Below are positions 1 through 64,000 of a stretch of DNA of 64,000 nucleotides, in pieces. The notes beneath the pieces are model-generated. The model did no database searches. It saw nothing but the letters and a program-made list of their open reading frames with translations, and had not been told where the DNA came from. Both the position numbers and the translations under genes were made by a program. Within the stretch, counting starts at the first letter, position 1, and each line of letters starts with the position of its first letter. The stretch comes from a virus. Location of the stretch: the UHGV virus genome UHGV-0148165; one strand, 5' to 3'.

Positions 1-50
1 GATCTACACGTAAGGAGTCGTCGGCAGCGTCAGATGTGTATAAGAGACAG
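1..50. other. Illumina Nextera adapter remnant (P5 tail, i5 index, read-1 primer with Tn5 mosaic end); not biological sequence
   Basis: nt 1-9 GATCTACAC, 10-17 GTAAGGAG (8-nt index), 18-31 TCGTCGGCAGCGTC, 32-50 AGATGTGTATAAGAGACAG, read directly. Confidence 0.95.
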
Positions 51-75
51 GGTAGGTGAGTAATTAGAGGTTAAT

Positions 76-432
76 ATGTATAGTTCTGAATTTTCATATT
101 TAAAAATTGAAAAAATTTCATACGATTTTATAGATGAAAAGGTTTATTACAGTTTCCATGAACCACGTTTTAATAGTGAGGTTGGGTTTATTGCAGTAAA
201 AGACAATTTTATTTTAAAAATATATTCAGCATTAAAGGATTTTCATTACGAAAATATTAACCTAAAATTTAATAAAGAAAATGTTCGTAATTGCGCGGTA
301 ACAATTACAGGAAATAAAGGTACATGTGTTATGCTATCTGATGAAATTAATGATTTGCTAAATGATGCAGAAAATATTACTGCACCATCTATTGATGACC
401 AAATTTTTAATGCTTTTATGAATAGAGGTTAA
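76..432 (+). CDS. hypothetical early protein, 118 aa (position of the small 61.x ORFs upstream of the primase gene)
   Basis: ATG 76 with GAGG 5 nt upstream; complete ORF; no recognisable motif. Confidence 0.5.
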   Translation: MYSSEFSYLKIEKISYDFIDEKVYYSFHEPRFNSEVGFIAVKDNFILKIYSALKDFHYENINLKFNKENVRNCAVTITGNKGTCVMLSDEINDLLNDAENITAPSIDDQIFNAFMNRG

Positions 433-433
433 T

Positions 434-598
434 ATGAAAACATTTAAAGAATTTATCAAAGAAGATATGGTCGCCGGAGATTCAGGTGGTAATCCTGAAA
501 ATATCTCTACTGGAACAACATCAGGCGCTGTAGTAAATAAAGGTCCTGAACAGATTCCTAAAAAGAAAAAAGAGGAATCTAAAGAAAAAGAAGAGTAA
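434..598 (+). CDS. small hypothetical protein, 54 aa, Lys/Glu-rich C-terminus
   Basis: below ORF-track cut-off, read manually; ATG 434 after GAGG; stop 596-598 abuts gene 61 start. Confidence 0.35.
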   Translation: MKTFKEFIKEDMVAGDSGGNPENISTGTTSGAVVNKGPEQIPKKKKEESKEKEE

Positions 599-600
599 AA

Positions 601-1629
601 ATGTCATCAATACCTTGGATTGATAATGAGTTTGCATACCGTGCATTAGCTCATTTACCTAAATTCACACAAGTAAATAATAGTTCAACTTTTAAATTGC
701 GGTTTAGATGCCCTGTTTGTGGAGATTCAAAAACCGACCAGAATAAAGCTCGTGGATGGTATTATGGTGATAATAATGAAGGAAATATTCATTGTTATAA
801 CTGTAACTATCATGCACCAATAGGAATATATTTAAAGGAGTTTGAACCTGATTTATATCGTGAGTATATCTTTGAAATAAGAAAAGAAAAAGGTAAAAGT
901 CGTCCAGTAGAAAAACCTAAAGAACTTCCTAAACATCCTGAGAAGAAAATAATTAAATCTCTTCCGTCATGTGTTAGATTAGATAAACTGGCGGAAGACC
1001 ATCCAATTATAAAATATGTAAAAGCTCGTTGTATTCCAAAGGATAAATGGAAATATCTTTGGTTTACAACCGAATGGCCTAAATTAGTTAATAGCATAGC
1101 ACCGGGAACATACAAAAAGGAAATTTCTGAGCCTCGTCTTGTTATTCCAATTTATAATGCTAATGGAAAAGCTGAGTCTTTTCAAGGACGTGCATTAAAG
1201 AAAGATGCTCCTCAAAAATATATCACCATTAAAGCTTATCCTGAGGCAACAAAAATATATGGAGTCGAACGAGTTAAAGATGGCGATGTATATGTTCTAG
1301 AAGGACCTATAGATTCACTTTTTATTGAAAATGGTATAGCTATTACGGGTGGTCAATTAGACCTAGAAATTGTTCCATTTAAAGATAGACGCGTGTGGGT
1401 TTTAGATAATGAACCTCGTCACCCTGACACTATCAAGCGAATGACTAAATTAGTTGATGCAGGAGAAAGGGTTATGTTTTGGGATAAATCTCCCTGGAAA
1501 TCAAAAGATGTTAATGATATGATTAGAAAGGAAGGTGCAACCACTGAACAAATTATGGAATATATGAAAAATAATATTGCCCAGGGGTTGATGGCTAAAA
1601 TGCGGTTATCTAAATATTCCAAGATTTAA
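601..1629 (+). CDS. 61: DNA primase gp61, 342 aa
   Basis: N-terminal zinc ribbon CPVCGDS...CYNCNYH; length and sequence match T4 primase as recalled; synteny 61-dam-56. Confidence 0.9.
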   Translation: MSSIPWIDNEFAYRALAHLPKFTQVNNSSTFKLRFRCPVCGDSKTDQNKARGWYYGDNNEGNIHCYNCNYHAPIGIYLKEFEPDLYREYIFEIRKEKGKSRPVEKPKELPKHPEKKIIKSLPSCVRLDKLAEDHPIIKYVKARCIPKDKWKYLWFTTEWPKLVNSIAPGTYKKEISEPRLVIPIYNANGKAESFQGRALKKDAPQKYITIKAYPEATKIYGVERVKDGDVYVLEGPIDSLFIENGIAITGGQLDLEIVPFKDRRVWVLDNEPRHPDTIKRMTKLVDAGERVMFWDKSPWKSKDVNDMIRKEGATTEQIMEYMKNNIAQGLMAKMRLSKYSKI

Positions 1630-1826
1630 ATTAACCCAACTAAAGCAAATGCTAGATCTACGAATGTATCAAGAGTAACTACTGGAATATTAACACCATG
1701 CGCAATTGCAATTGGTGATAAAATAAAGTTCCAGAGTAAAATTCCTACCATAGCAGAAATAGTAAAAGCTATACGTTTCTTATTACCTTTGATGGCATTA
1801 ACAAGTGCCATTAATTTTTGTGCCAT
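1626..1826 (-). CDS. candidate small hydrophobic membrane protein, 66 aa, convergent with and overlapping the 3' end of gene 61
   Basis: minus-strand ORF fills an otherwise 295-bp noncoding gap; AAGGAGG 4 nt upstream of its ATG; predicted TM segment IAFTISAMVGILLWNFILSPIAIA. Confidence 0.3.
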   Translation of the reverse strand: MAQKLMALVNAIKGNKKRIAFTISAMVGILLWNFILSPIAIAHGVNIPVVTLDTFVDLAFALVGLI

Positions 1827-1869
1827 ATGTCCTCCTTTAAATTAATATTATCACAAATTTCATAAATTT

Positions 1870-1902
1870 GTTTACTTTCTCAGCTTGTTATGGTATTATA
1901 AA
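1870..1902 (+). promoter_or_regulatory. T4 early-type promoter (GTTTAC -35, about 18-nt spacer, TATTAT -10)
   Basis: GTTTAC 1870-1875, TATTAT 1894-1899; upstream of ORF 1925. Confidence 0.5.
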
Positions 1903-1924
1903 ATAAATTGCTGAGGATGATATA

Positions 1925-3264
<1,340 letters not shown>

Positions 3265-49510: not shown

Positions 49511-50013
49511 GTACCTTTAACTTCCATAAAAACATGGAAATCATGGAAGGTAATGCCAAGATTATGAAGTTCATTGCACGCGATGAACAGCTTCACCTTA
49601 AAGGCACCCAATATATTATTCGTCAACTTCAATCTGGTACTGATGGCGATGAATGGGTTAAAATTGCTCAAGAGTGTGAACAAGAAGCAGTTGATATTTT
49701 CATGGAAGTTAACCGCCAAGAAAAAGATTGGGCAGTTCATTTATTTAAAGATGGCGATGTTCCTGGATTAAATACAAATAGCATGTGGAGCTTTATTGAT
49801 TACTTAACTGTATCTCGTATGAAACAGTGCGGTCTTCCATGCCCAATTACCGATGCTCCGGTTAAACATCCATATCCTTGGATTCGTGAATATCTTAATT
49901 CTGATAATGTTCAATCCGCGCCACAAGAAGTAGAACTGTCATCTTATCTTGTTGCACAGATTGATAATGATGTTGATGATAAAGTTATGATGAGTTTTAA
50001 AAAATACTTTTAA
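49511..50013 (+). CDS. nrdB: ribonucleotide reductase small subunit NrdB, exon 2
   Basis: MEGNAKIMKFIARDEQLHLKGTQ... conserved RNR R2 region. Confidence 0.85.
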
Positions 50014-50017
50014 GGAG

Positions 50018-50040
50018 TGGGCCGCAAGGCCCATTTTATT
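50018..50040 (+). terminator. GNRA-loop hairpin plus T-run after nrdB, lying between the AAGGAG and the denA ATG
   Basis: TGGGCC-GCAA-GGCCCA followed by TTTTATT. Confidence 0.5.
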
Positions 50041-51628
<1,588 letters not shown>

Positions 51629-51631
51629 GCT

Positions 51632-51661
51632 GTTTACAAGTCCCTCATGTTGTGTTATAGT
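51632..51661 (+). promoter_or_regulatory. T4 early-type promoter upstream of alc, with flanking imperfect inverted repeat that includes the SD
   Basis: GTTTAC 51632-51637, TATAGT 51656-51661; AGTCCCTCATGTT 51639-51651 pairs with AACATGAGGACT 51676-51687. Confidence 0.45.
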
Positions 51662-51692
51662 AGTCTTACTGACATAACATGAGGACTTTATG

Positions 51693-52196
51693 ATGGATTT
51701 GCAGCTTATTACTACTGAAATGGTCGTTGAAGCATACGGTGATACTACAGATGGGATTTCTGTATTCAAAGGAAATCGTCGAGTTGGATATATCACCGAT
51801 CTTAAGAAAGATTTAGCTAAGCAAGTCAAGCGGAAAACGACCATTAAAGAATATCGAAATCGTCGTCTTGAGCAAGCCCGTGATATGCTTCCTGATGCGG
51901 TTGAAGAGATGAAAGTCTTTTTAGAAAATCAACTCGCTAAGTATGATTGTGAAGTGTTCATTAATCAGACTCAACCTAATGTTCATATCAATAGCTGTAA
52001 ATGCTATATCATCGTTAATCCTTTAACGGGAAAACATCGTCTTGGAATTAGTAATCCAAATCGTAGCGCATCGGATATGGCAGAAGATGTTGAGGCATGC
52101 TTTAAAATTTCTAAATCTCCAGCTGAACATCATATTTTAATTAACGGTCTTTCTCAAGACGATATTATAGAGGTTATTAAAACTTTATGCATGTAA
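51693..52196 (+). CDS. alc: Alc-like protein (inhibitor of host transcription), 167 aa
   Basis: 167 aa, position between rnlA and pseT as in T4; assignment from size and synteny. Confidence 0.6.
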   Translation: MDLQLITTEMVVEAYGDTTDGISVFKGNRRVGYITDLKKDLAKQVKRKTTIKEYRNRRLEQARDMLPDAVEEMKVFLENQLAKYDCEVFINQTQPNVHINSCKCYIIVNPLTGKHRLGISNPNRSASDMAEDVEACFKISKSPAEHHILINGLSQDDIIEVIKTLCM

Positions 52197-52540
52197 GTAA
52201 TTTTACAGCTGGATTGCTATTACTTGTAATAGCATTTGGCGGAACATCTATTATTTTAAAAAATAAGGTAGAAAGATTAGAAACATCAGTTACTGAAATT
52301 ACAAAAACAGCCAATGAAAACGCTTTAGCATTAAATAATTTGCGAATTCAGTATAATTATATTGATGCGATGAATAATAAAAATCGTGAGGCAATTGCTG
52401 CTATTGAGCGTGAAAATGAAAAACTGCGCAAAGATGCAAAGAAGGCGGATGTGGTGGCTCATAAGCCAGGATTGGTTGAAAAACAAATCAACAACTCCTT
52501 CAACAAGTTCGCAGAAGACATCCAGGACCTTTCTAAATGA
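52187..52540 (+). CDS. hypothetical protein with N-terminal TM segment, 117 aa
   Basis: N-terminus MHVSNFTAGLLLLVIAFGGTSIIL; coiled-coil-like remainder. Confidence 0.45.
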   Translation: MHVSNFTAGLLLLVIAFGGTSIILKNKVERLETSVTEITKTANENALALNNLRIQYNYIDAMNNKNREAIAAIERENEKLRKDAKKADVVAHKPGLVEKQINNSFNKFAEDIQDLSK

Positions 52541-52836
52541 TTAAACTATCAGCAGTAATATTATCTATTGGTCTTCTAGTTGGTTGTTCTACAAAGCCTC
52601 TAGAAGTAAAGAAAGAAACAGTTCATCCTAATTGGCCTGTACAAATAAAGTCATATGATGAAGCTAAACTATCTTGGCAAGTTAAAGTTATCGATGGTAA
52701 AGCTTGGGTCGGTATGCCATTTGAAGATTCTCAGGAATTTCGTATTTGGCTTAATGATGTAAAACGATATGTACATGACCAGAAAACTATGATATGTTAT
52801 TATCGTCAAGAGTTAAAAGAGGATAAATGTAAATGA
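52537..52836 (+). CDS. putative lipoprotein, 99 aa
   Basis: signal peptide with lipobox LVGC (MIKLSAVILSIGLLVGCSTKP). Confidence 0.5.
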   Translation: MIKLSAVILSIGLLVGCSTKPLEVKKETVHPNWPVQIKSYDEAKLSWQVKVIDGKAWVGMPFEDSQEFRIWLNDVKRYVHDQKTMICYYRQELKEDKCK

Positions 52837-53059
52837 TTTCATGGCATCAATTTGAACATCTCAAAGGATTGATTTATGAATCCGAGATGGCAGCAATGAT
52901 TTATGGACGTCAGATTCAACGATTAGAATCTTTACCTCCAACTAATGATGTTTTATTAGCTCAATCACGTGCTAATCTTAAAAATGAATACCAAAATAAG
53001 TGGGGTAAAGCATCTAAAGACCTGCATGATTATATTCAATCATTGGTTGAGAAAAATAA

Positions 53060-53063
<4 letters not shown>
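52833..53063 (+). CDS. hypothetical protein, 76 aa
   Basis: start overlaps upstream stop. Confidence 0.45.
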
Positions 53064-54264
<1,201 letters not shown>

Positions 54265-54328
54265 TGGCTTGGCACCATGAAACTTGGGATATTATTAATT
54301 GGCTTGAAGAAAATTATGTGAGGTAAAT

Positions 54329-54604
54329 ATGTTTCCGACTTATTCTAAAATCGTAGAAGTAGTGTTTAGCCAAATTATTGCTAATAATATGTTTGAAAAA
54401 CTTGATAATGCAGCTGAGCTTCGAATCCATGCTCAAGTGACTCATGTATTGAACACTTTGCTTCCAGACCAGGTGGATTCTGTTGCCATCACGTTGTATC
54501 CAGGTTCCGCGCATATCATTGTCGTATTTGGTCTTGATGCTGAGCTAGTTATCAAAGGCGATATTCGTTTTGAATCGCAGACAGCAGAATTCAAAGCAAT
54601 TTAA
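54329..54604 (+). CDS. hypothetical protein, 91 aa
   Basis: complete ORF after pseT. Confidence 0.45.
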   Translation: MFPTYSKIVEVVFSQIIANNMFEKLDNAAELRIHAQVTHVLNTLLPDQVDSVAITLYPGSAHIIVVFGLDAELVIKGDIRFESQTAEFKAI

Positions 54605-54606
54605 TA

Positions 54607-54645
54607 GTTTACTTTACGGTAGAGTTGTGATATTATAGCTCTACC
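54607..54645 (+). promoter_or_regulatory. T4 early-type promoter with -10 embedded in a 7-bp inverted repeat
   Basis: GTTTAC 54607-54612, TATTAT 54631-54636, flanked by GGTAGAG 54618-54624 and CTCTACC 54639-54645. Confidence 0.55.
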
Positions 54646-54665
54646 AAACAAATGAGGAAAACAAA

Positions 54666-54905
54666 ATGCTGCTAAGTGAAAAACCGATTACTGTTAAAGA
54701 ATTCCAAGAAAAAGTTAAGCTATTTGCGCAGGAATTGGTAAATAAGGTTTCTGAACGATTTCCTGAAACATCGGTTCGTGTTATTACCGAAACTCCTCGT
54801 TCAGTATTAGTAATTGTGAATCCAGGTGATGGCGATCAAATATCGCATCTTAAATTAGATTTTGATGGATTAGTTGAAGCACAAAGGGTGTATGGCGTAC
54901 TATGA
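54666..54905 (+). CDS. hypothetical protein, 79 aa
   Basis: ATG after GAGGAAAACAAA. Confidence 0.45.
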   Translation: MLLSEKPITVKEFQEKVKLFAQELVNKVSERFPETSVRVITETPRSVLVIVNPGDGDQISHLKLDFDGLVEAQRVYGVL

Positions 54906-55240
54906 TGAATTTAACTGATATAATTGATAATTGTCTTGAAAATGATACTGGCGATCATAGAGCGCTTGATTCTGAAACAGCACAGTTCATTAGAATAACT
55001 TTAATGAATGATACTCTAGTGAATAGTATTCATCCTTCTGTGTATGATGCTATTATTGTGACGAAGTATCCAGTTGAGCTTCACAAAAAGATGACTGGCG
55101 CAGTTTTTATTGATAAGAAAAACCGCTTTAAAGATGGGCTGAATATAATTACTTCTGTTGTTAAAAGTATAACTAAACTTCGTCACGAAATTTATCGCGT
55201 TGAAACTGCTAAATCTGCTTATCTGGTGATTATGAAATGA
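54902..55240 (+). CDS. hypothetical protein, 112 aa
   Basis: start overlaps upstream stop; stop overlaps cd start. Confidence 0.45.
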   Translation: MMNLTDIIDNCLENDTGDHRALDSETAQFIRITLMNDTLVNSIHPSVYDAIIVTKYPVELHKKMTGAVFIDKKNRFKDGLNIITSVVKSITKLRHEIYRVETAKSAYLVIMK

Positions 55241-55818
55241 AAGCGAGTACAGTACTTCAAATTGCATATTTAGTATCACAGGAATCAAAATGTTGCTCCT
55301 GGAAGGTAGGAGCAGTAATTGAAAAGAATGGACGTATTATTTCTACCGGATATAATGGTTCACCCGCAGGGGGTGTGAACTGTTGTGATTATGCTGCTGA
55401 GCAAGGTTGGTTGTTGAATAAGCCTAAACATACTATCATTCAAGGTCATAAGCCTGAATGCGTATCATTTGGTTCAACTGATCGTTTTGTTTTGGCGAAA
55501 GAACATCGTAGCGCTCACTCTGAATGGTCGTCTAAAAATGAAATTCATGCTGAACTAAATGCAATTTTGTTTGCTGCACGAAATGGTTCTTCTATTGAAG
55601 GTGCTACTATGTATGTAACACTTTCTCCTTGCCCAGATTGTGCAAAAGCGATAGCTCAATCTGGCATTAAAAAGCTGGTTTATTGCGAAACATACGATAA
55701 AAATAAACCTGGCTGGGATGATATTCTGCGAAATGCAGGTATTGAAGTGTTTAATGTTCCTAAGAAAAACTTGAATAAGTTAAACTGGGAAAATATCAAC
55801 GAATTCTGTGGTGAATAA
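55237..55818 (+). CDS. cd: dCMP deaminase, 193 aa
   Basis: zinc-binding deaminase motifs HAELNA and SPCPDCAKAI; length matches T4 Cd. Confidence 0.85.
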   Translation: MKASTVLQIAYLVSQESKCCSWKVGAVIEKNGRIISTGYNGSPAGGVNCCDYAAEQGWLLNKPKHTIIQGHKPECVSFGSTDRFVLAKEHRSAHSEWSSKNEIHAELNAILFAARNGSSIEGATMYVTLSPCPDCAKAIAQSGIKKLVYCETYDKNKPGWDDILRNAGIEVFNVPKKNLNKLNWENINEFCGE

Positions 55819-56054
55819 TGAAATTTCGTTTGGTAAAGCTCACAGCAATTAGTTCTTATTCTAACGAGAACATCTCATTTGCTGTAGAGTTTAAGAAATA
55901 TTTTTTCTCTAAATGGAAACAGTATTATAAAACTGATTGGACTAGTATTGATAGACCATATAGTTGGAAATCTGATTTAGAAAAATGCCAAAAATTACTT
56001 TCCACCCTTAAAGAACGTGGAACAACTCATATTAAAACTGTGATAGGTAAATAA
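55818..56054 (+). CDS. hypothetical protein, 78 aa
   Basis: start overlaps cd stop. Confidence 0.45.
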   Translation: MKFRLVKLTAISSYSNENISFAVEFKKYFFSKWKQYYKTDWTSIDRPYSWKSDLEKCQKLLSTLKERGTTHIKTVIGK

Positions 56055-56363
56055 ATGAAACTGACAACTGAGCAGAAAGTAGCAATTCGTGAAATTTTGA
56101 AAACTAAATTGTCTATGGGTGTTTCAAACGTAGTTTTTGAAAAGTCTGATGGTACTATTCGTACTATGAAAGGTACTCGTGATGCAGACTTTATGCCAAC
56201 CATGCAAACTGGCAAATTGACTGAATCTACTCGGAAAGAATCTACTGACATGATTCCAGTATTTGATGTTGAACTTGGTGCATGGCGAGGTTTTTCTATT
56301 GACAAATTGATTTCTGTTAATGGTATGAAAGTTGAGCATTTGCTCCAATTTATTGGTAAATAA
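56055..56363 (+). CDS. hypothetical protein, 102 aa
   Basis: start adjacent to upstream stop. Confidence 0.45.
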   Translation: MKLTTEQKVAIREILKTKLSMGVSNVVFEKSDGTIRTMKGTRDADFMPTMQTGKLTESTRKESTDMIPVFDVELGAWRGFSIDKLISVNGMKVEHLLQFIGK

Positions 56364-56419
56364 ATGCTTTAAGAATTATTTGTTATTATTAATTCATCTG
56401 TTAACAAAAAGGAAAAACG

Positions 56420-56755
56420 ATGTCTGAAGTACAACAGCTACCAATTCGTGCTGTCGGTGAATATGTTATTTTAGTTTCTGAACCTGCACAAGCCGGTGAT
56501 GAAGAAGTTACAGAATCAGGACTTATTATCGGTAAACGTGTTCAAGGTGAAGTTCCTGAACTGTGTGTAGTTCACTCTGTCGGTCCTGATGTTCCTGAAG
56601 GTTTCTGCGAAGTTGGTGATTTGACTTCTCTTCCAGTTGGTCAAATTCGAAATGTTCCGCATCCTTTTGTAGCTCTGGGTCTTAAGCAGCCAAAAGAAAT
56701 TAAACAAAAATTCGTTACTTGTCACTATAAAGCTATTCCATGTCTTTATAAGTGA
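56420..56755 (+). CDS. 31: co-chaperonin gp31 (GroES-like), 111 aa
   Basis: [40 protein letters not shown]... matches T4 gp31 as recalled. Confidence 0.85.
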
Positions 56756-56763
56756 TATAAATA
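56756..56763 (+). promoter_or_regulatory. late promoter TATAAATA upstream of rIII
   Basis: exact TATAAATA directly after gene 31 stop. Confidence 0.4.
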
Positions 56764-56902
56764 ATAATATGAATTGGGTGTCGGAATAATAAGTTAACCG
56801 AACAATTCTATGTGGTAGTCTACAACTGAGAGATCTGTCGAAAGAAGATGAAATTCAGAAGAACGTGACTACCGAGTTTTAATCTCTAACGAGAATTTTT
56901 AA

Positions 56903-57151
56903 ATGATTAAACAATTACAACACGCTCTTGAACTGCAACGAAACGCATGGAATAATGGTCACGAAAACTATGGCGCATCTATTGATGTTGAAGCCGAAGC
57001 TCTTGAAATCCTGCGTTATTTCAAACATCTGAATCCTGCTCAAACTGCATTAGCTGCTGAGCTTCAGGAAAAAGATGAACTTAAATATGCTAAGCCTTTG
57101 GCTTCTGCTGCACGAAAAGCAGTTCGTCACTTTGTGGTAACACTGAAGTAA
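56903..57151 (+). CDS. rIII: rIII lysis-inhibition accessory protein, 82 aa
   Basis: 82 aa, position between 31 and 30 block as in T4. Confidence 0.65.
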   Translation: MIKQLQHALELQRNAWNNGHENYGASIDVEAEALEILRYFKHLNPAQTALAAELQEKDELKYAKPLASAARKAVRHFVVTLK

Positions 57152-57270
57152 TTATGATGACGGGTTTATGGTTATCCTGGTCGTTAAATATCCAAAACCT
57201 ATGTTCCCCTTGAGGGCTTGCGCAGGCAATGCCAATAAGTCCTGCATTTTCATTTAAAAGAGAATTTATA

Positions 57271-57447
57271 ATGGCAAAACAAGCTAAAGCAAAGAAAGCA
57301 GTTGAAAAGAAAGTTGGTGATTCTAAACGCGCTGGCTACAAGCGTGGGTCGAACTCTCGTATCAATCAAACTGTTGAGAAGATCATGCGCCGAGCACGTG
57401 CGGTTCTTCGAGATGATGCTTCTCGTTTTGGTAAGCAGAAAGCATAA
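57271..57447 (+). CDS. small basic hypothetical protein, 58 aa
   Basis: ATG 57271 (track ORF 57229 starts upstream); Lys/Arg-rich MAKQAKAKKAVEKKVGDSKRAGYKRG. Confidence 0.4.
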   Translation: MAKQAKAKKAVEKKVGDSKRAGYKRGSNSRINQTVEKIMRRARAVLRDDASRFGKQKA

Positions 57448-57450
57448 GTT

Positions 57451-57476
57451 GAGGACTCCTTCGGGAGTCCTTTTTT
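57451..57476 (+). terminator. intrinsic terminator, identical copy of the hairpin after soc
   Basis: AGGACTCC-TTCG-GGAGTCCT followed by TTTTTT; same 25-mer as 4178-4202. Confidence 0.65.
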
Positions 57477-57500
57477 ATTTTCCAAAGATTGCACAAAGTT

Positions 57501-57530
57501 GTTTACAGTACGGTTCCTTTGTGATAGTAT
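57501..57530 (+). promoter_or_regulatory. T4 early-type promoter
   Basis: GTTTAC 57501-57506, 18-nt spacer, TAGTAT 57525-57530. Confidence 0.5.
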
Positions 57531-57557
57531 TATCTTACACAAACAAAGGAGAATAAA

Positions 57558-57890
57558 ATGAAAACTATTAATCTGAACGCTACAGTTAAAACTAAATGTT
57601 TCAATGGTAAATATAATGAAACTATGTGGTTCTTAATGGCAGTTGAAGGTGATATTATTGAAGTAGAAACAACAGAAGGTATGGGAACAGATTTCACCTT
57701 TACAATTCAAGTTCATAATTTCTTTACTGGTTGGATTTATGAATTGAATACAGTAATCGTTGGAAAAATTGAACAAAATGAATTAGGTGAATGGTATTAT
57801 GTTACAGCTCGCCAACGTGCTGAACGCTTAATTGAGAAAATGAAAAAAGTTGGTAAACTTGACATGCAGCATTGGAAAGTAGTAAAATAA
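57558..57890 (+). CDS. hypothetical protein, 110 aa
   Basis: ATG after AAGGAGAATAAA. Confidence 0.5.
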   Translation: MKTINLNATVKTKCFNGKYNETMWFLMAVEGDIIEVETTEGMGTDFTFTIQVHNFFTGWIYELNTVIVGKIEQNELGEWYYVTARQRAERLIEKMKKVGKLDMQHWKVVK

Positions 57891-57892
57891 TT

Positions 57893-57932
57893 GTTTACTT
57901 TGGTACAGGACATGATATTATATACCTGTACC
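57893..57932 (+). promoter_or_regulatory. T4 early-type promoter with -10 embedded in an 8-bp inverted repeat
   Basis: GTTTAC 57893-57898, TATTAT 57916-57921, flanked by GGTACAGG 57902-57909 and CCTGTACC 57925-57932. Confidence 0.55.
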
Positions 57933-57957
57933 GCAATTAAACATCTTGGAGAATAAA

Positions 57958-58323
57958 ATGAACTACATTAACTTTGAACGTAAATATGTTTCTAATGGTA
58001 TTGCAGGTTCTATTGATACCATCTGCCTTTGGAAACATCAAAACGGATCAGTATGCGAAATCGATCAGTATATGACTCCTAACTACGTTTATATGCGATT
58101 TGAAAACGGTATCACGGTTTCAATCACAATGGAAGGTTCCAACTTTAAAATCGCTCTGGATGATGATTTCCGTCAACGCGATTTAGGGACTCATCCTTGC
58201 TGGAATGGTGCTAATCGTAAACTCTTAGTTAAAACTTGGATTCGTCATATTCTGAGTAACAGAGCTAAACCTGAGCATCTTGAAGCAATCTTTGATGTAG
58301 TTCTTAACGAATTTGATATTTAA
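57958..58323 (+). CDS. hypothetical protein, 121 aa
   Basis: ATG 57958 after GGAGAATAAA (track starts at TTG 57946). Confidence 0.5.
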   Translation: MNYINFERKYVSNGIAGSIDTICLWKHQNGSVCEIDQYMTPNYVYMRFENGITVSITMEGSNFKIALDDDFRQRDLGTHPCWNGANRKLLVKTWIRHILSNRAKPEHLEAIFDVVLNEFDI

Positions 58324-58333
58324 AATAAAATGA

Positions 58334-58347
58334 GGGGCTTCGGGCCC
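58334..58347 (+). other. UUCG-tetraloop RNA hairpin in 5' leader (no T-run)
   Basis: GGGGC-TTCG-GGCCCC-like stem-loop between two ORFs. Confidence 0.45.
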
Positions 58348-58365
58348 CTTACTGAGGAAAATATT

Positions 58366-58653
58366 ATGTTTATGACTACTTATTTTGATACTCGCAAAAA
58401 TTTCTGTGAAGTGGTTTTCTCAAAGGCACCTAAAGACCTTCCTGCACATTTGCAACCTACTAGCGAATCGATTAAAAACTACGTTGATGCGGTTTGTCCT
58501 TTAGAGTTTCGTACTGTAAATGGGCACGATACTTTAGCTATCACTAAACTCAATCGTGAAATTGACATTGACCCTTCAATTGCGCGCGAAATTAATATTT
58601 CTGATATTGGTGGCGGTAATGTTAAATCGCATGGTTTTCAGATGAGGTTCTAA
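58366..58653 (+). CDS. hypothetical protein, 95 aa
   Basis: ATG 58366 after GAGGAAAATATT; upstream in-frame ATG 58330 runs through the hairpin and lacks SD. Confidence 0.45.
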   Translation: MFMTTYFDTRKNFCEVVFSKAPKDLPAHLQPTSESIKNYVDAVCPLEFRTVNGHDTLAITKLNREIDIDPSIAREINISDIGGGNVKSHGFQMRF

Positions 58654-58850
58654 TGAAATTCTTTTTAGGTCAAACTGTTGAATTAAAGGGAGTTGGTATA
58701 CCTGGATTAATTTCTAAGGTTTTACCTCCATTTAAATGGAGTGGTATTCAAATAAAAGAGGCTTATATTGTTTCCTGGGTAGATGGAAATGAAGACCTTC
58801 GTATGGGTGATGAATTATCTCCTATCTACGGATTAAAGGAATTAGTATGA
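58653..58850 (+). CDS. hypothetical protein, 65 aa
   Basis: start overlaps upstream stop. Confidence 0.45.
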   Translation: MKFFLGQTVELKGVGIPGLISKVLPPFKWSGIQIKEAYIVSWVDGNEDLRMGDELSPIYGLKELV

Positions 58851-59053
58851 ATATAATTAATAAGATTTTTGGAATTCAGTACATTAAGGTCACATATAAA
58901 GTAACAGATAAAAATCCATATACCGATGAACATGAAGAACCACAAATTGAGTCTATTATATTAGAAAAAGGCAGTGACTGGCCAGTTGAATTTCGTCTTC
59001 CTTGCTATGGTCATTGGGCTGATGTTGAAATTATAAGCATTGAAAATGTCTGA
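58847..59053 (+). CDS. hypothetical protein, 68 aa
   Basis: start overlaps upstream stop. Confidence 0.45.
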   Translation: MNIINKIFGIQYIKVTYKVTDKNPYTDEHEEPQIESIILEKGSDWPVEFRLPCYGHWADVEIISIENV

Positions 59054-59504
59054 GTTAGAGATTAGAAGCAATTTTAAGTGGCCATCATGTGCATTAAGTA
59101 ATTTCGCTCAATGGCCTTTCGTTATGGATGGTATTCAATTTGGAGGTCTAGAAGGATTCCTTCAAGGGTGCAAGGTGAAAAATGTTGAACAACAACGTCG
59201 TATATTTGGGTTATCAGGGCTTGCCGCTCAACAAGCTGGAAGGTCTTATGCTAGAGCTCAGGACCGTGGGACCCTCTTCTGGCTTGGAGTTCCGTTTTCA
59301 AGATACTCCCCGGCGTGGAAAGAATTATACACAAATGCATATTTTGAAGCAGCGATCCAAAACAAGGGCTTTCGTGATGCATTACAAGCCTCGAAAGGAA
59401 AAGTTTTGAAGCACAGCATGGCTAGTGGTCTAACAAAAGATGATACAATACTAACCGAAGCTGAATTTATTGATGTGTTAAACCTATTAAGAGACTCTCT
59501 ATGA
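59046..59504 (+). CDS. hypothetical protein, 152 aa; possible NADAR/YbiA-like (DUF1768) fold
   Basis: ATG 59046 (track starts at TTG 59040); motif pattern NFKWPSCALSNFAQWPF...GLEGFLQGCK; assignment tentative. Confidence 0.4.
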   Translation: MSELEIRSNFKWPSCALSNFAQWPFVMDGIQFGGLEGFLQGCKVKNVEQQRRIFGLSGLAAQQAGRSYARAQDRGTLFWLGVPFSRYSPAWKELYTNAYFEAAIQNKGFRDALQASKGKVLKHSMASGLTKDDTILTEAEFIDVLNLLRDSL

Positions 59505-60346
59505 AGCCTACTATTTTAACTGATATCGATGGAGTATGTTTAAGCTGGCAATCAGGCCTTCCTTATTTTGCTCAGAAATATAATCTTCCGTTGGAACATA
59601 TTTTAAAAATGATCCAGGATGAAAAATTTATTTCACCTGGTAAACTTTTTAATTGTGATGAAGAACTTGGTGTCAAGTTAATTGAAAAATACAATCGATC
59701 AGATTTTATTCGTTACTTGTCTCCATATAAAGATGCTCTGTGTGTAATTAACAAATTAAAAGAAGATTATAATTTTGTTGCTGTTACAGCATTGGGTGAT
59801 TCTATTGATGCTCTGCTGAATCGTCAATTTAATTTGAATGCTCTTTTTCCTGGTGCCTTCTCAGAAGTACTGATGTGTGGTCATGATTCTTCAAAAGAAG
59901 AGTTGTTCAAAAAGGCAAAAGAGAAATATAACGTAATTTGTTATATTGACGATCTCGCTCACCACTGCGATCATGCGAGTGAAATATTAAATGTGCCTGT
60001 TTATTGGATGGCTCGAGGGGAGCGTGACAGTATTCCAAAAACTGCACAGCGTGTTTATACATGGAATGATGTAGAGAATAAGCTTTTTCCATTGAAGGAA
60101 AATAAAGAAAGTTTTGATAGTGAAAAAGCTATAAAAGATGTAATTGAGAAGATGATTAAAAACGATTCTTTTCGTTGGAACACTACCTGGAGAACTCCTG
60201 GATTTAATCCTTATAATCCATATTATCTATATCATCCATATCAGACGCATCCGTTTCAGACATGGAACTATATTAAACCCGGTGGCATAGAGTATTTGTA
60301 TAATAGACCTACTGGTGCTAATAATATTTTCCAAGGAGCATTCTAA
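59501..60346 (+). CDS. HAD-superfamily phosphatase-like protein, 281 aa, aromatic-rich C-terminal tail
   Basis: HAD motif I ILTDIDGVCL at N-terminus; C-terminus NPYNPYYLYHPYQTHPFQTWNY. Confidence 0.5.
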   Translation: MKPTILTDIDGVCLSWQSGLPYFAQKYNLPLEHILKMIQDEKFISPGKLFNCDEELGVKLIEKYNRSDFIRYLSPYKDALCVINKLKEDYNFVAVTALGDSIDALLNRQFNLNALFPGAFSEVLMCGHDSSKEELFKKAKEKYNVICYIDDLAHHCDHASEILNVPVYWMARGERDSIPKTAQRVYTWNDVENKLFPLKENKESFDSEKAIKDVIEKMIKNDSFRWNTTWRTPGFNPYNPYYLYHPYQTHPFQTWNYIKPGGIEYLYNRPTGANNIFQGAF

Positions 60347-60615
60347 TGTTTGTTGTTCACACTATTTATGAAAATGAAGGTAATACTACACGTGATTACG
60401 GTCACGTAAATCAATTTTTTAGATGCAATCCAGAATTCCGAGCTCAAAAAGACGAACGAATTTTTAAAAAATGTGTAGAGCAAGGTTTCATTTACGTCAA
60501 GCATTGGATGCAAGGAAATAAAGTTAGAACCACGTACCACAGGTCTTTGCCTGAGCTTAATGATGAATTGATTTATAATAGAGCTGTAAACCAAACCTTG
60601 AAGGATGAGCAATGA
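60346..60615 (+). CDS. hypothetical protein, 89 aa
   Basis: start overlaps upstream stop; stop overlaps ligase start. Confidence 0.45.
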   Translation: MFVVHTIYENEGNTTRDYGHVNQFFRCNPEFRAQKDERIFKKCVEQGFIYVKHWMQGNKVRTTYHRSLPELNDELIYNRAVNQTLKDEQ

Positions 60616-62075
60616 TTCTTAAAATTCTGAATGAAATAGCATCTATTGGTTCAACTAAGCAGAAGCAAGCAATTCTTGAAAAGAATAAAGATAATGAATT
60701 GCTTAAACGGGTATATCGTCTGACTTATTCTCGCGGGTTACAGTATTATATCAAGAAATGGCCTAAACCTGGTATTGCTACCCAGAGTTTTGGAATGCTG
60801 ACTATTACTGATATGCTTGACTTCATTGAATTCACGTTAGCTACTCGGAAATTGACTGGAAATGCGGCAATTGAGGAATTAACTGGATATATCACCGATG
60901 GTAAAAAAGATGATGTTGAAGTTTTGCGTCGGGTGATGATGCGAGACCTTGAATGTGGTGCTTCAGTATCTATTGCAAACAAAGTTTGGCCAGGTTTAAT
61001 TCCTGAACAACCTCAAATGCTCGCAAGTTCTTATGATGAAAAAGGCATTAATAAGAATATCAAATTTCCAGCCTTTGCCCAGTTAAAAGCTGATGGAGCT
61101 CGGTGTTTTGCTGAAGTTAGAGGTGATGAATTAGATGATGTTCGTCTTTTATCACGAGCTGGTAATGAATATCTAGGATTAGATCTTCTTAAAGAAGAGT
61201 TAATCAAAATGACCGCAGAAGCCCGCCAGATTCATCCAGAAGGTGTGTTAATTGATGGCGAATTGGTATACCATGAGCAAGTTAAAAAGGAGCCAGAAGG
61301 CCTAGATTTTCTTTTTGATGCTTATCCTGAAAACAGTAAAGCTAAAGAATTCGCCGAAGTAGCTGAATCACGTACTGCATCTAATGGCATCGCCAATAAA
61401 TCTTTAAAGGGAACCATTTCTGAAAAAGAAGCACAATGCATGAAGTTTCAGGTCTGGGATTATGTCCCGTTGGTAGAAATATACGGTCTTCCTGCATTTC
61501 GTTTGAAATATGATGTACGTTTTTCTAAACTAGAACAAATGACATCAGGCTATGATAAAGTAATTTTAATTGAAAACCAGGTAGTAAATAACCTAGACGA
61601 AGCCAAGGTAATTTATAAAAAGTATATTGACCAAGGTCTTGAAGGTATTATTCTCAAAAATATCGATGGATTATGGGAAAATGCTCGTTCAAAAAATCTC
61701 TATAAATTTAAAGAAGTAATTGATGTTGATTTAAAAATTGTAGGAATTTATCCTCACCGTAAAGACCCTACTAAAGCAGGTGGATTTATTCTTGAGTCAG
61801 AGTGTGGAAAAATTAAAGTAAATGCTGGTTCAGGCTTAAAAGATAAAGCCGGTGTAAAATCGCATGAACTTGACCGTACTCGCATTATGGAAAACCAAAA
61901 TTATTATATTGGAAAAATTCTAGAGTGCGAATGCAACGGTTGGTTAAAATCTGATGGCCGCACTGATTACGTTAAATTATTTCTTCCGATTGCGATTCGT
62001 TTGCGTGAAGATAAAACTAAAGCTAATACATTCGAGGATGTATTTGGTGATTTTCATGAGGTAACTGGTTTATGA
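60612..62075 (+). CDS. 30: ATP-dependent DNA ligase gp30, 487 aa
   Basis: adenylation motif I KADGARCF (KxDG); length identical to T4 DNA ligase. Confidence 0.9.
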   Translation: MILKILNEIASIGSTKQKQAILEKNKDNELLKRVYRLTYSRGLQYYIKKWPKPGIATQSFGMLTITDMLDFIEFTLATRKLTGNAAIEELTGYITDGKKDDVEVLRRVMMRDLECGASVSIANKVWPGLIPEQPQMLASSYDEKGINKNIKFPAFAQLKADGARCFAEVRGDELDDVRLLSRAGNEYLGLDLLKEELIKMTAEARQIHPEGVLIDGELVYHEQVKKEPEGLDFLFDAYPENSKAKEFAEVAESRTASNGIANKSLKGTISEKEAQCMKFQVWDYVPLVEIYGLPAFRLKYDVRFSKLEQMTSGYDKVILIENQVVNNLDEAKVIYKKYIDQGLEGIILKNIDGLWENARSKNLYKFKEVIDVDLKIVGIYPHRKDPTKAGGFILESECGKIKVNAGSGLKDKAGVKSHELDRTRIMENQNYYIGKILECECNGWLKSDGRTDYVKLFLPIAIRLREDKTKANTFEDVFGDFHEVTGL

Positions 62076-62260
62076 AAGCTTACTTAGAAACAATTGTCAT
62101 TGCTCAAAAAGAAGGTGGAGATGTTTCTACTTCTGTATCACAAGTCATTCTCGAATTTGTAGATGCATACGCTTATAATAAATTCACAGAAACATTTGAT
62201 GCCTATGAAAAAGGTCCAAAGTTTGAAATATACCGTACTCTCTTACCACTAGATTATTAA
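62072..62260 (+). CDS. hypothetical protein, 62 aa
   Basis: ATGA overlap with ligase stop; followed by hairpin and late promoter. Confidence 0.4.
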   Translation: MKAYLETIVIAQKEGGDVSTSVSQVILEFVDAYAYNKFTETFDAYEKGPKFEIYRTLLPLDY

Positions 62261-62276
62261 AGGCCTTCGGGCCTTT
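62259..62276 (+). terminator. UUCG-tetraloop hairpin after the ligase operon (weak T-run)
   Basis: AAAGGCC-TTCG-GGCCTTT; the AGGCC-TTCG-GGCCTTT core also occurs at 14581-14596. Confidence 0.45.
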
Positions 62277-62281
62277 AATTT

Positions 62282-62289
62282 TATAAATA
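62282..62289 (+). promoter_or_regulatory. late promoter TATAAATA upstream of alt
   Basis: exact TATAAATA 21 nt upstream of alt ATG. Confidence 0.5.
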
Positions 62290-62309
62290 GAATAAACACT
62301 AGAGAGGCT

Positions 62310-64000
62310 ATGATGGAACTTATTACAGAATTATTTGACGAAGATACTACTCTTCCGATTACAAACTTAAATCCAAAGAAGAAAATACCGCAAATTTTTT
62401 CAGTTCATGTTGATGATGCAATTGAACAACCAGGCTTTCGTTTATGTACCTATACATCTGGAGGTGATACTAATCGCGATTTAAAGATGGGCGATAAAAT
62501 GATGCATATTGTTCCTTTTACATTAACTGCTAAAGGTTCAATTGCTAAATTAAAAGGTCTTGGTCCAAGCCCAATTAATTATATCAATTCAGTTTTTACT
62601 GTTGCGATGCAAACAATGCGTCAGTATAAAATTGATGCCTGTATGCTTCGTATTCTTAAGTCTAAAACCGCTGGTCAAGCTCGACAAATTCAAGTTATTG
62701 CTGATAGACTTATCCGTAGTCGTTCAGGTGGCAGATACGTCCTTCTTAAGGAACTCTGGGATTACGACAAAAAGTATGCATATATTCTTATACATCGCAA
62801 AAATGTATCATTAGAAGACATTCCAGGAGTTCCGGAAATTAGTACCGAGCTCTTTACTAAAGTTGAATCGAAAGTCGGCGATGTTTATATCAATAAAGAT
62901 ACTGGAGCTCAAGTAACTAAAAATGAGGCAATTGCAGCATCTATTGCGCAAGAAAATGATAAACGTTCTGACCAAGCTGTAATCGTTAAAGTTAAAATTT
63001 CCCGTAGAGCAATTGCACAAAGTCAGTCATTGGAATCTTCTAGATTTGAAAGTGAATTATTCCAGAAGTATGAATCTACCGCAGCTAATTTCAATAAACC
63101 TGCTACCGCTCCTTTAATTCCCGAAGCAGAAGAAATGAAGCTTGGAATTAATTCATTAGCTTCTAAAACTAAGGCAGCAAAAATTATTGCCGAAGGAACT
63201 GCGAATGAACTTCACTATGACTATAAATTCTTTTCAAAAAGTGAGGTTGATGAAGTTTCCGAAAAAATTAAAGATGTAATTTTTAACGCGATAAAAAATG
63301 AGCCAACTACTTCAATAAAATGTTTAGAGAAATACGCAGCAGCTGTTAATAAATTCTTTGAAGAATATAAAGATAATTGGCTTGATAAACATAATAAAAC
63401 TCGTAAAGGGCAACCAGATGAAGTCTGGGGAGAAATAACTAAAAATGCCTGGAATGCAGCAAAAACTAAATTCCTCAAACGAATGATTTATAGCTTTTCT
63501 GGAATTGGTGCTGGTCCAATGATTGATATTACCATTGCACGTGATGGTTCTAAATATACTCCATCACAAAAGCGTGGCATTAGAGAATATTGCGGCTCAG
63601 GATATACAGACATTAATAATCTTCTTTTAGGTCGTTACAATCCAGAACGATATGATGTAATGAGTGAAAAAGAAATTGAATCTGCTATAAATAATTTAGA
63701 TTCAGCCTTTGAAAATGGTGACCGCATACCGGAAGGCATTACAGTTTATCGTGCTCAAAGTATGACTGCTCCTATATACGAAGCGCTAGTTAAAAATAAA
63801 GTGTTCTATTTCAGAAATTTTGTATCTACTTCTTTAACTCCTATCATTTTTGGGCGTTTTGGAATTACACATGCTGGTATTGGTCTTTTAGAACCAGAAG
63901 CTCGTAATGAATTAACAGTTGATAAAAATGAAGAAGGAATAACTATTAATCCAAACGAAATAAGAGCGTATAAAGAAAATCCTGAATACGTTAAAGTTCA
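62310..64000 (+). CDS. alt: Alt ADP-ribosyltransferase (virion-packaged), N-terminal 563 codons; ORF runs off the window end
   Basis: open frame from ATG 62310 to window end with no stop (translated manually); ART-like YRAQS and STSL motifs near the end; not in ORF track because incomplete. Confidence 0.75.
   Translation, partial: MMELITELFDEDTTLPITNLNPKKKIPQIFSVHVDDAIEQPGFRLCTYTSGGDTNRDLKMGDKMMHIVPFTLTAKGSIAKLKGLGPSPINYINSVFTVAMQTMRQYKIDACMLRILKSKTAGQARQIQVIADRLIRSRSGGRYVLLKELWDYDKKYAYILIHRKNVSLEDIPGVPEISTELFTKVESKVGDVYINKDTGAQVTKNEAIAASIAQENDKRSDQAVIVKVKISRRAIAQSQSLESSRFESELFQKYESTAANFNKPATAPLIPEAEEMKLGINSLASKTKAAKIIAEGTANELHYDYKFFSKSEVDEVSEKIKDVIFNAIKNEPTTSIKCLEKYAAAVNKFFEEYKDNWLDKHNKTRKGQPDEVWGEITKNAWNAAKTKFLKRMIYSFSGIGAGPMIDITIARDGSKYTPSQKRGIREYCGSGYTDINNLLLGRYNPERYDVMSEKEIESAINNLDSAFENGDRIPEGITVYRAQSMTAPIYEALVKNKVFYFRNFVSTSLTPIIFGRFGITHAGIGLLEPEARNELTVDKNEEGITINPNEIRAYKENPEYVKV

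Follow-up and report, generated by a model that had tools for sequence, protein, structure and literature searches.

A Nextera i5-side library adapter occupies the first 50 nucleotides of a T4-like phage sequence

Organization of the start of the sequence

The window, that is, the whole stretch of 64,000 nucleotides analysed here, opens with 50 nucleotides of synthetic origin that are followed by the last codons of the spackle (sp) gene and by a group of phage genes. Read directly from the sequence of this 64-kb window, positions 1-50 are composed of GATCTACAC + GTAAGGAG + TCGTCGGCAGCGTC + AGATGTGTATAAGAGACAG. The features found at this end are the following:

1-9, + strand: 3' tail of the Illumina P5 flow-cell adapter, GATCTACAC (from published i5 primers and IMG/VR contigs)
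10-17, + strand: 8-nt i5 index GTAAGGAG, Nextera index 505 (from two published primer tables)
18-31, + strand: 14-nt part of the read-1 sequencing primer, TCGTCGGCAGCGTC, which is the single-stranded overhang of Tn5ME-A (exact match to the oligonucleotide in PMC4248319)
32-50, + strand: 19-nt engineered hyperactive Tn5 mosaic end, AGATGTGTATAAGAGACAG, abutting the insert (exact, single copy)
1-63, + strand: spurious open frame DLHVRSRRQRQMCIRDRVGE closed by a stop codon, in which adapter-encoded residues are fused in frame to the last sp codons (frame 1 translation)
51-63, + strand: sp remnant, made up of the third base of a Val codon, the residues V-G-E and the stop codon TAA (alignment to PV295200 and MG781190)
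76-432, + strand: first intact phage gene, for a protein of 118 aa that is homologous to T4 gp61.2 and belongs to the AdfA (anti-DarT factor A) family (ORF list and Pfam)
434-598: next small gene (ORF list)
601-1629: ORF corresponding to a CDS annotated as DNA primase subunit in a relative (ORF list and annotation of the relative)

The ORF at 76-432 is preceded by a GAGG ribosome-binding site at 67-70, within the phage sequence, and its product matches the Pfam family PF23813 (AdfA) with E=1.7e-7 and a score of 31.3 bits against a cutoff of 27. The match covers positions 115-211 of the 211 positions of the profile, which correspond to the C-terminal half only. Truncation of this ORF by the boundary was considered and rejected, because the relatives harbor an equivalent CDS of the same length, 357 nt, located 12 nt after sp. 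The presence of this short form in the relatives shows that the ORF is complete and that its product is a natural half-length protein of the AdfA family, not the result of a truncation. The initial annotation had described this ORF as sitting next to an artificial boundary; the adjacency is real, but the ORF is undamaged, and the gene lost at this boundary is sp, which is reduced to its last 13 nt at 51-63. Further downstream, the ORF at 601-1629 has a weak match to the Pfam family DNAG_N that falls below threshold (23.5 bits against a cutoff of 26). Across positions 1-64000, a tRNA scan detected no tRNA genes, and there were no Rfam matches at the gathering threshold.

Phage DNA from position 51

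A megablast search with positions 1-3000 retrieved 541 phage records, nearly all of them from T4-like phages of Escherichia, Shigella, Yersinia or Salmonella, and the 25 alignments listed out of these 541 records all start at query position 51, the best of them being 99.5% identical. A three-way alignment of the window with PV295200 and MG781190 locates the junction at the same base. Over columns 1-50, only 14 of the 50 are invariant, approximately what is expected by chance, and from column 51 onwards PV295200 is identical to the window over 51-140, with MG781190 showing two differences over this same interval. The starts of the megablast alignments and the three-way alignment therefore agree in placing the first phage base at 51, where it had been placed from inspection of the sequence. 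No sequence with the exact junction of adapter and phage DNA was found in collections of viral, metagenome or genome contigs.

From there on, the window has the sequence of an ordinary Tequatrovirus, with hundreds of records at 97-99.5% identity. This phage part aligns collinearly with Tequatrovirus genomes (97-98% identity, approximately 100% coverage), beginning in the primase region and passing rIIA, the tail-fibre genes and nrdA/B before it reaches alt, and this collinearity indicates that the window contains no other foreign DNA.

The closest record shifts along the window, from PV295201 (99.5% over 51-3000) and MZ234030 (97.0% over 51-25000) to PV295200 (98.0% over 25001-50000) and PV654517 (97.5% over 50001-64000), and the relationships across 51-64000 are mosaic. 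Mosaic relationships are typical of recombining Tequatrovirus genomes. No group I intron was detected in the window, which spans the thymidylate synthase gene and the nrdA/nrdB region; T4 has group I introns in td and nrdB, and nrdB is annotated as two pieces in some of the relatives.

The interrupted sp gene and the position of the junction

In the relatives, the 50 nt that precede the position of the junction are the 3' part of sp. The annotated sp CDS of MG781190 is located at 2220-2513 (L002), and the match to the window begins at 2501. The Sp protein, which matches the Pfam family T4_Spackle with E=1.6e-44, ends in ...IIAEVVGE followed by the stop codon. The start of the match inside the sp gene of MG781190, together with this C-terminus, identifies positions 51-63 of the window as the last 13 nt of sp, and the remaining 281 nt of the gene are missing because the sequence starts here. 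The relatives maintain an unbroken sequence, ...GCTGAAGTGGTAGGTGAGTAA..., across sp to 61.2. Four contigs encoding an identical 118-aa protein are on record, and the two that were shown, which are independent contigs and not the source of the window, both carry a complete Spackle gene 12 nt upstream of it. The apparent absence of sp is thus an artefact of the contig start and not a gene loss. The fusion of adapter and sp codons in the frame at 1-63 might be reported as a partial gene by a gene caller that tolerates sequence edges; the peptide MCIRDR, which the adapter encodes, was searched for in the literature and not found.

The location of the junction also bears on the genome terminus. A genuine phage terminus (cos, DTR or pac) at position 51 was considered and rejected, as this position falls inside sp, which is continuous in the relatives. 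T4-type phages package their DNA by a headful mechanism without a pac site, which results in random, circularly permuted ends, and transposase-based (Nextera) libraries lose the termini (PMC5557969, PMC8785237). Given headful packaging with random ends and the loss of termini in transposase libraries, the start of the sequence says nothing about the genome terminus, and position 51 marks an arbitrary break within sp in a T4-like genome that is circularly permuted. It could be argued that the assembly broke at this point for a biological reason, for instance because the phage population was mixed or recombinant and varied upstream of gene 61.2, and a break of this kind, if real, would let an adapter-bearing tip survive as a contig end. 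This is very unlikely, and it lacks observed support, since sp is found directly upstream in all the relatives examined.

Identity of the first 50 nucleotides

The 33-mer TCGTCGGCAGCGTCAGATGTGTATAAGAGACAG matches positions 18-50 of the + strand exactly, and this is its sole match in the window when up to 3 mismatches are allowed on both strands. With the same tolerance, none of 100 dinucleotide-preserving shuffles contained a match. This 33-nt segment is identical to Tn5ME-A (Illumina FC-121-1030), published as TCGTCGGCAGCGTCAGATGTGTATAAGAGACAG, and its 19-bp mosaic end is a hyperactive laboratory substitute for the wild-type Tn5 end sequences (PMC4248319). The mosaic end is present as one copy in the window, at 32-50, and no second one exists within the 64 kb in either orientation, even with up to 3 mismatches.

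The preceding positions are explained by published index primers. Positions 1-31 are the last 31 nt of the oligonucleotide named 'Nextera i5 Index Primer 505', with the sequence AATGATACGGCGACCACCGAGATCTACACGTAAGGAGTCGTCGGCAGCGTC (table in PMC8225968). The same primer has been listed elsewhere as Ad_i5.5_GTAAGGAG, in a form that reaches further into AGATGTGTAT (PMC12702366), and the published i5 primers all have ...CCGAGATCTACAC ahead of the index (PMC8225968, PMC12702366). The full adapter, comprising P5, index, read-1 primer and mosaic end, was built by script for 18 i5 indices. The construct with index GTAAGGAG has a 50-nt suffix that equals the prefix of the window, and with each of the other indices this overlap is 1 nt. 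The 14-mers of the Nextera i7-specific arm GTCTCGTGGGCTCGG, of the TruSeq adapter, of P7 and of the body of P5 are absent from the rest of the 64 kb on both strands; the arm of Tn5ME-B, GTCTCGTGGGCTCGG, is absent, and the 14-mer located 5' of the mosaic end is the Tn5ME-A arm.

When compared with the i5-side adapter of the Illumina Nextera and Nextera XT kits, all 50 nt are identical, with the 3' 31 nt of primer 505 being followed by the 19-nt mosaic end. This 50/50 identity to primer 505 plus Tn5ME-A means that every base of positions 1-50 is explained by a synthetic construct. The arrangement is also that of an i5-side adapter, with the mosaic end beside the insert, the Tn5ME-A arm before it, an index of the i5 set, and the 3' end of P5 ahead of this index. 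In contrast to the full adapter, the window lacks the first 20 nt of P5 (AATGATACGGCGACCACCGA), as expected at the end of a read or contig. The four parts that the initial annotation had recognized in these positions (P5 tail, i5 index, read-1 primer and mosaic end) all agree with the published oligonucleotide tables. The base composition of this segment also differs from that of the remainder of the window (GC of 0.50 versus 0.353), only 3% of the 50-nt windows being as GC-rich.

That a native phage sequence resembles the adapter by chance is vanishingly improbable. All 50 positions match the construct, the shuffled sequences failed to produce the 33-mer even with up to 3 mismatches, and in relatives with 99.5% identity downstream, the sequence in the place of positions 1-50 is unrelated.

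A different explanation for the presence of a Tn5-type end sequence, which is what positions 32-50 are, would be a transposon end that is physically part of the phage genome, either a natural Tn5/IS50 end or an engineered Tn5 insertion derived from transposon mutagenesis. Natural Tn5 is characterized by paired inverted outside and inside ends (OE/IE) that flank IS50 and by a 9-bp target duplication, and was rejected as a candidate because the window contains one mosaic end only. The mosaic end derives from the outside and inside ends of IS50, but positions 32-50 carry the engineered form and not either of the wild-type ends (PMC4248319). This laboratory hybrid, unlike the ends of natural Tn5, occurs as a single copy, without an IS50 body, and is joined to Illumina-specific sequence. 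Upstream of it lie the primer overhang, the index and the P5 tail, which become attached to a mosaic end only during library PCR. A second end is missing from the 64 kb in both orientations at the same tolerance of 3 mismatches, there is no space for a transposon cargo, as the window is collinear with its relatives from position 51, and not one of the listed alignments (25 of 541 related records) enters positions 1-50. Taken against this evidence, a Tn5 insertion is exceedingly improbable.

The same adapter in other public viral sequences

The 33-mer TCGTCGGCAGCGTCAGATGTGTATAAGAGACAG was found as an exact match in at least 120 unrelated IMG/VR contigs. Among the IMG/VR matches listed, the P5 side lies at most 40 nt from the sequence end in 118 of 121 (median 13 nt), with the adapter pointing inward. 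The 8-mer slot ahead of the 33-mer takes only 16 values among these listed matches, GTAAGGAG occurring 13 times, and all 16 appear in the index list used for comparison. Of the listed matches in which 17 nt or more precede the 33-mer, 25 out of 26 read GATCTACAC followed by an 8-mer. Many of the adapter-bearing IMG/VR contigs come from sample 3300045988.

GenBank/RefSeq contains 28 phage records that match the adapter query over 33-50 nt, and these phages infect unrelated hosts (Vibrio, Acinetobacter, Listeria, Bacillus, Paenibacillus and Escherichia). The full-length matches are approximately 90-92% identical, their mismatches being mostly in the index, and most matches are found near the starts of the records on the + strand or near their ends on the - strand. 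The RefSeq entries that carry the adapter include NC_049386, NC_049393-95, NC_049948, NC_049949 and NC_049953.

The other adapter-bearing records, both in IMG/VR and in GenBank/RefSeq (for example LR597635.1, LT985581.1, MH538296.1 and MK373775.1), resemble the window in having the same 33-mer, with the P5 side facing outward and located at or near an end. They differ from it in carrying different indices, and some of them have a full P5 with a poly-T run, or hold the adapter internally, where it splits annotated genes. The adapter is absent from the homologous genomes and recurs in unrelated sequences at contig ends, as befits a sequence of non-biological origin.

As adapters located more than 40 nt from an end do exist, the presence of the adapter alone does not prove that a contig ends there. 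The window could merely start at an artefact that lies at an internal chimeric join of a longer record, and such internal copies are found in 3 of the 121 IMG/VR matches listed, which have the adapter more than 40 nt from an end, as well as in MK373775.1 (149749-149798, in the long-tail-fibre gene region), MK170160.1, LR595870.1 and MZ092003.1. However, the window opens exactly at a shortened adapter that retains only 9 nt of P5, and the internal GenBank cases that were examined keep a full P5 and a poly-T run, both of which the window lacks. The prevailing arrangement among the IMG/VR matches listed, with 118 of 121 within 40 nt of an end and the P5 side outward, is also that of the window, and an internal join is highly improbable here.

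Proposed origin of the adapter

Positions 1-50 are almost certainly an untrimmed Nextera i5-side adapter with index 505, which most likely arose from read-through of read 2 and remained at the contig end. The identity of the adapter, its absence from all the relatives, the exact junction and its recurrence at the ends of unrelated contigs are direct observations; the read-2 read-through, the short insert and the equivalence of window position 1 with the true end of the contig are inferences. The proposed model is that Tn5 would have inserted the Tn5ME-A oligonucleotide into phage DNA at the site that is now position 51 of the window, and that the index PCR would then have added the index and P5. 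If the fragment starting at 51 was shorter than the read length, read 2 would have run through the insert into the adapter, continuing from the insert into CTGTCTCTTATACACATCT-GACGCTGCCGACGA-CTCCTTAC-GTGTAGATC..., of which positions 1-50 of the window would be the reverse complement. The read would have overshot the insert by 50 nt, adapter trimming would have missed this read-through, and the assembler would have retained the adapter at the tip of the contig.

The assignment to read 2 follows from the design of the library. Read 1, primed on TCGTCGGCAGCGTCAGATGTGTATAAGAGACAG, begins with the first base of the insert, so that it should not be able to contain the adapter, which would leave read 2 from a fragment below the read length as the sole possible source. 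The initial annotation took the contig end to be built from a single read, but it could also rest on several reads or on PCR duplicates of one fragment.

Consequences for annotation and for public databases

The advice that the first 50 nt must not be used for annotation or for inference of termini or synteny is borne out by their nature, as they are a synthetic adapter and the junction with the phage DNA lies inside sp. They should be removed before genes are annotated, termini called or synteny compared. The finding matters for data hygiene and quality control only, and has no biological content or novelty, an untrimmed adapter being a well-known class of laboratory artefact. One report describes adapters or barcodes from Oxford Nanopore oligonucleotides as contaminating GenBank assemblies through incomplete trimming (PMC13182109), which is the same class of artefact, produced on another platform and with other oligonucleotides. 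Contamination with the Nextera adapter is widespread, as it was found in at least 120 contigs of IMG/VR and in 28 phage records of GenBank/RefSeq, and annotated CDSs overlap the adapter in some of these sequences. A routine adapter screen of viral databases would be worthwhile.

Two GenBank records, MK373775.1 and MH538296.1, hold a full or nearly full P5 after a poly-T run, and annotated CDSs overlap the adapter in both of them. A poly-T run before P5 is the pattern expected when a read runs past the end of the library molecule. MK373775.1 is the genome of Escherichia phage vB_EcoM_WFK (Mosigvirus), deposited as a 'complete genome', and carries the adapter internally, at 149749-149798. The region 149720-149914 of this record comprises poly-T, a nearly full P5, an N501-like index and Tn5ME-A. 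The adapter is flanked by pieces with the annotation long tail fibre proximal subunit, two annotated CDSs overlap it, and it probably reflects a chimeric join or a misassembly that splits gene 34. In MH538296.1 (Bacillus phage Maceta), positions 21-104, near the start of the record, consist of poly-T, P5, the index TAGATCGC and Tn5ME-A, and a CDS annotated as 'hypothetical protein' at 84-452 on the - strand runs into the adapter.
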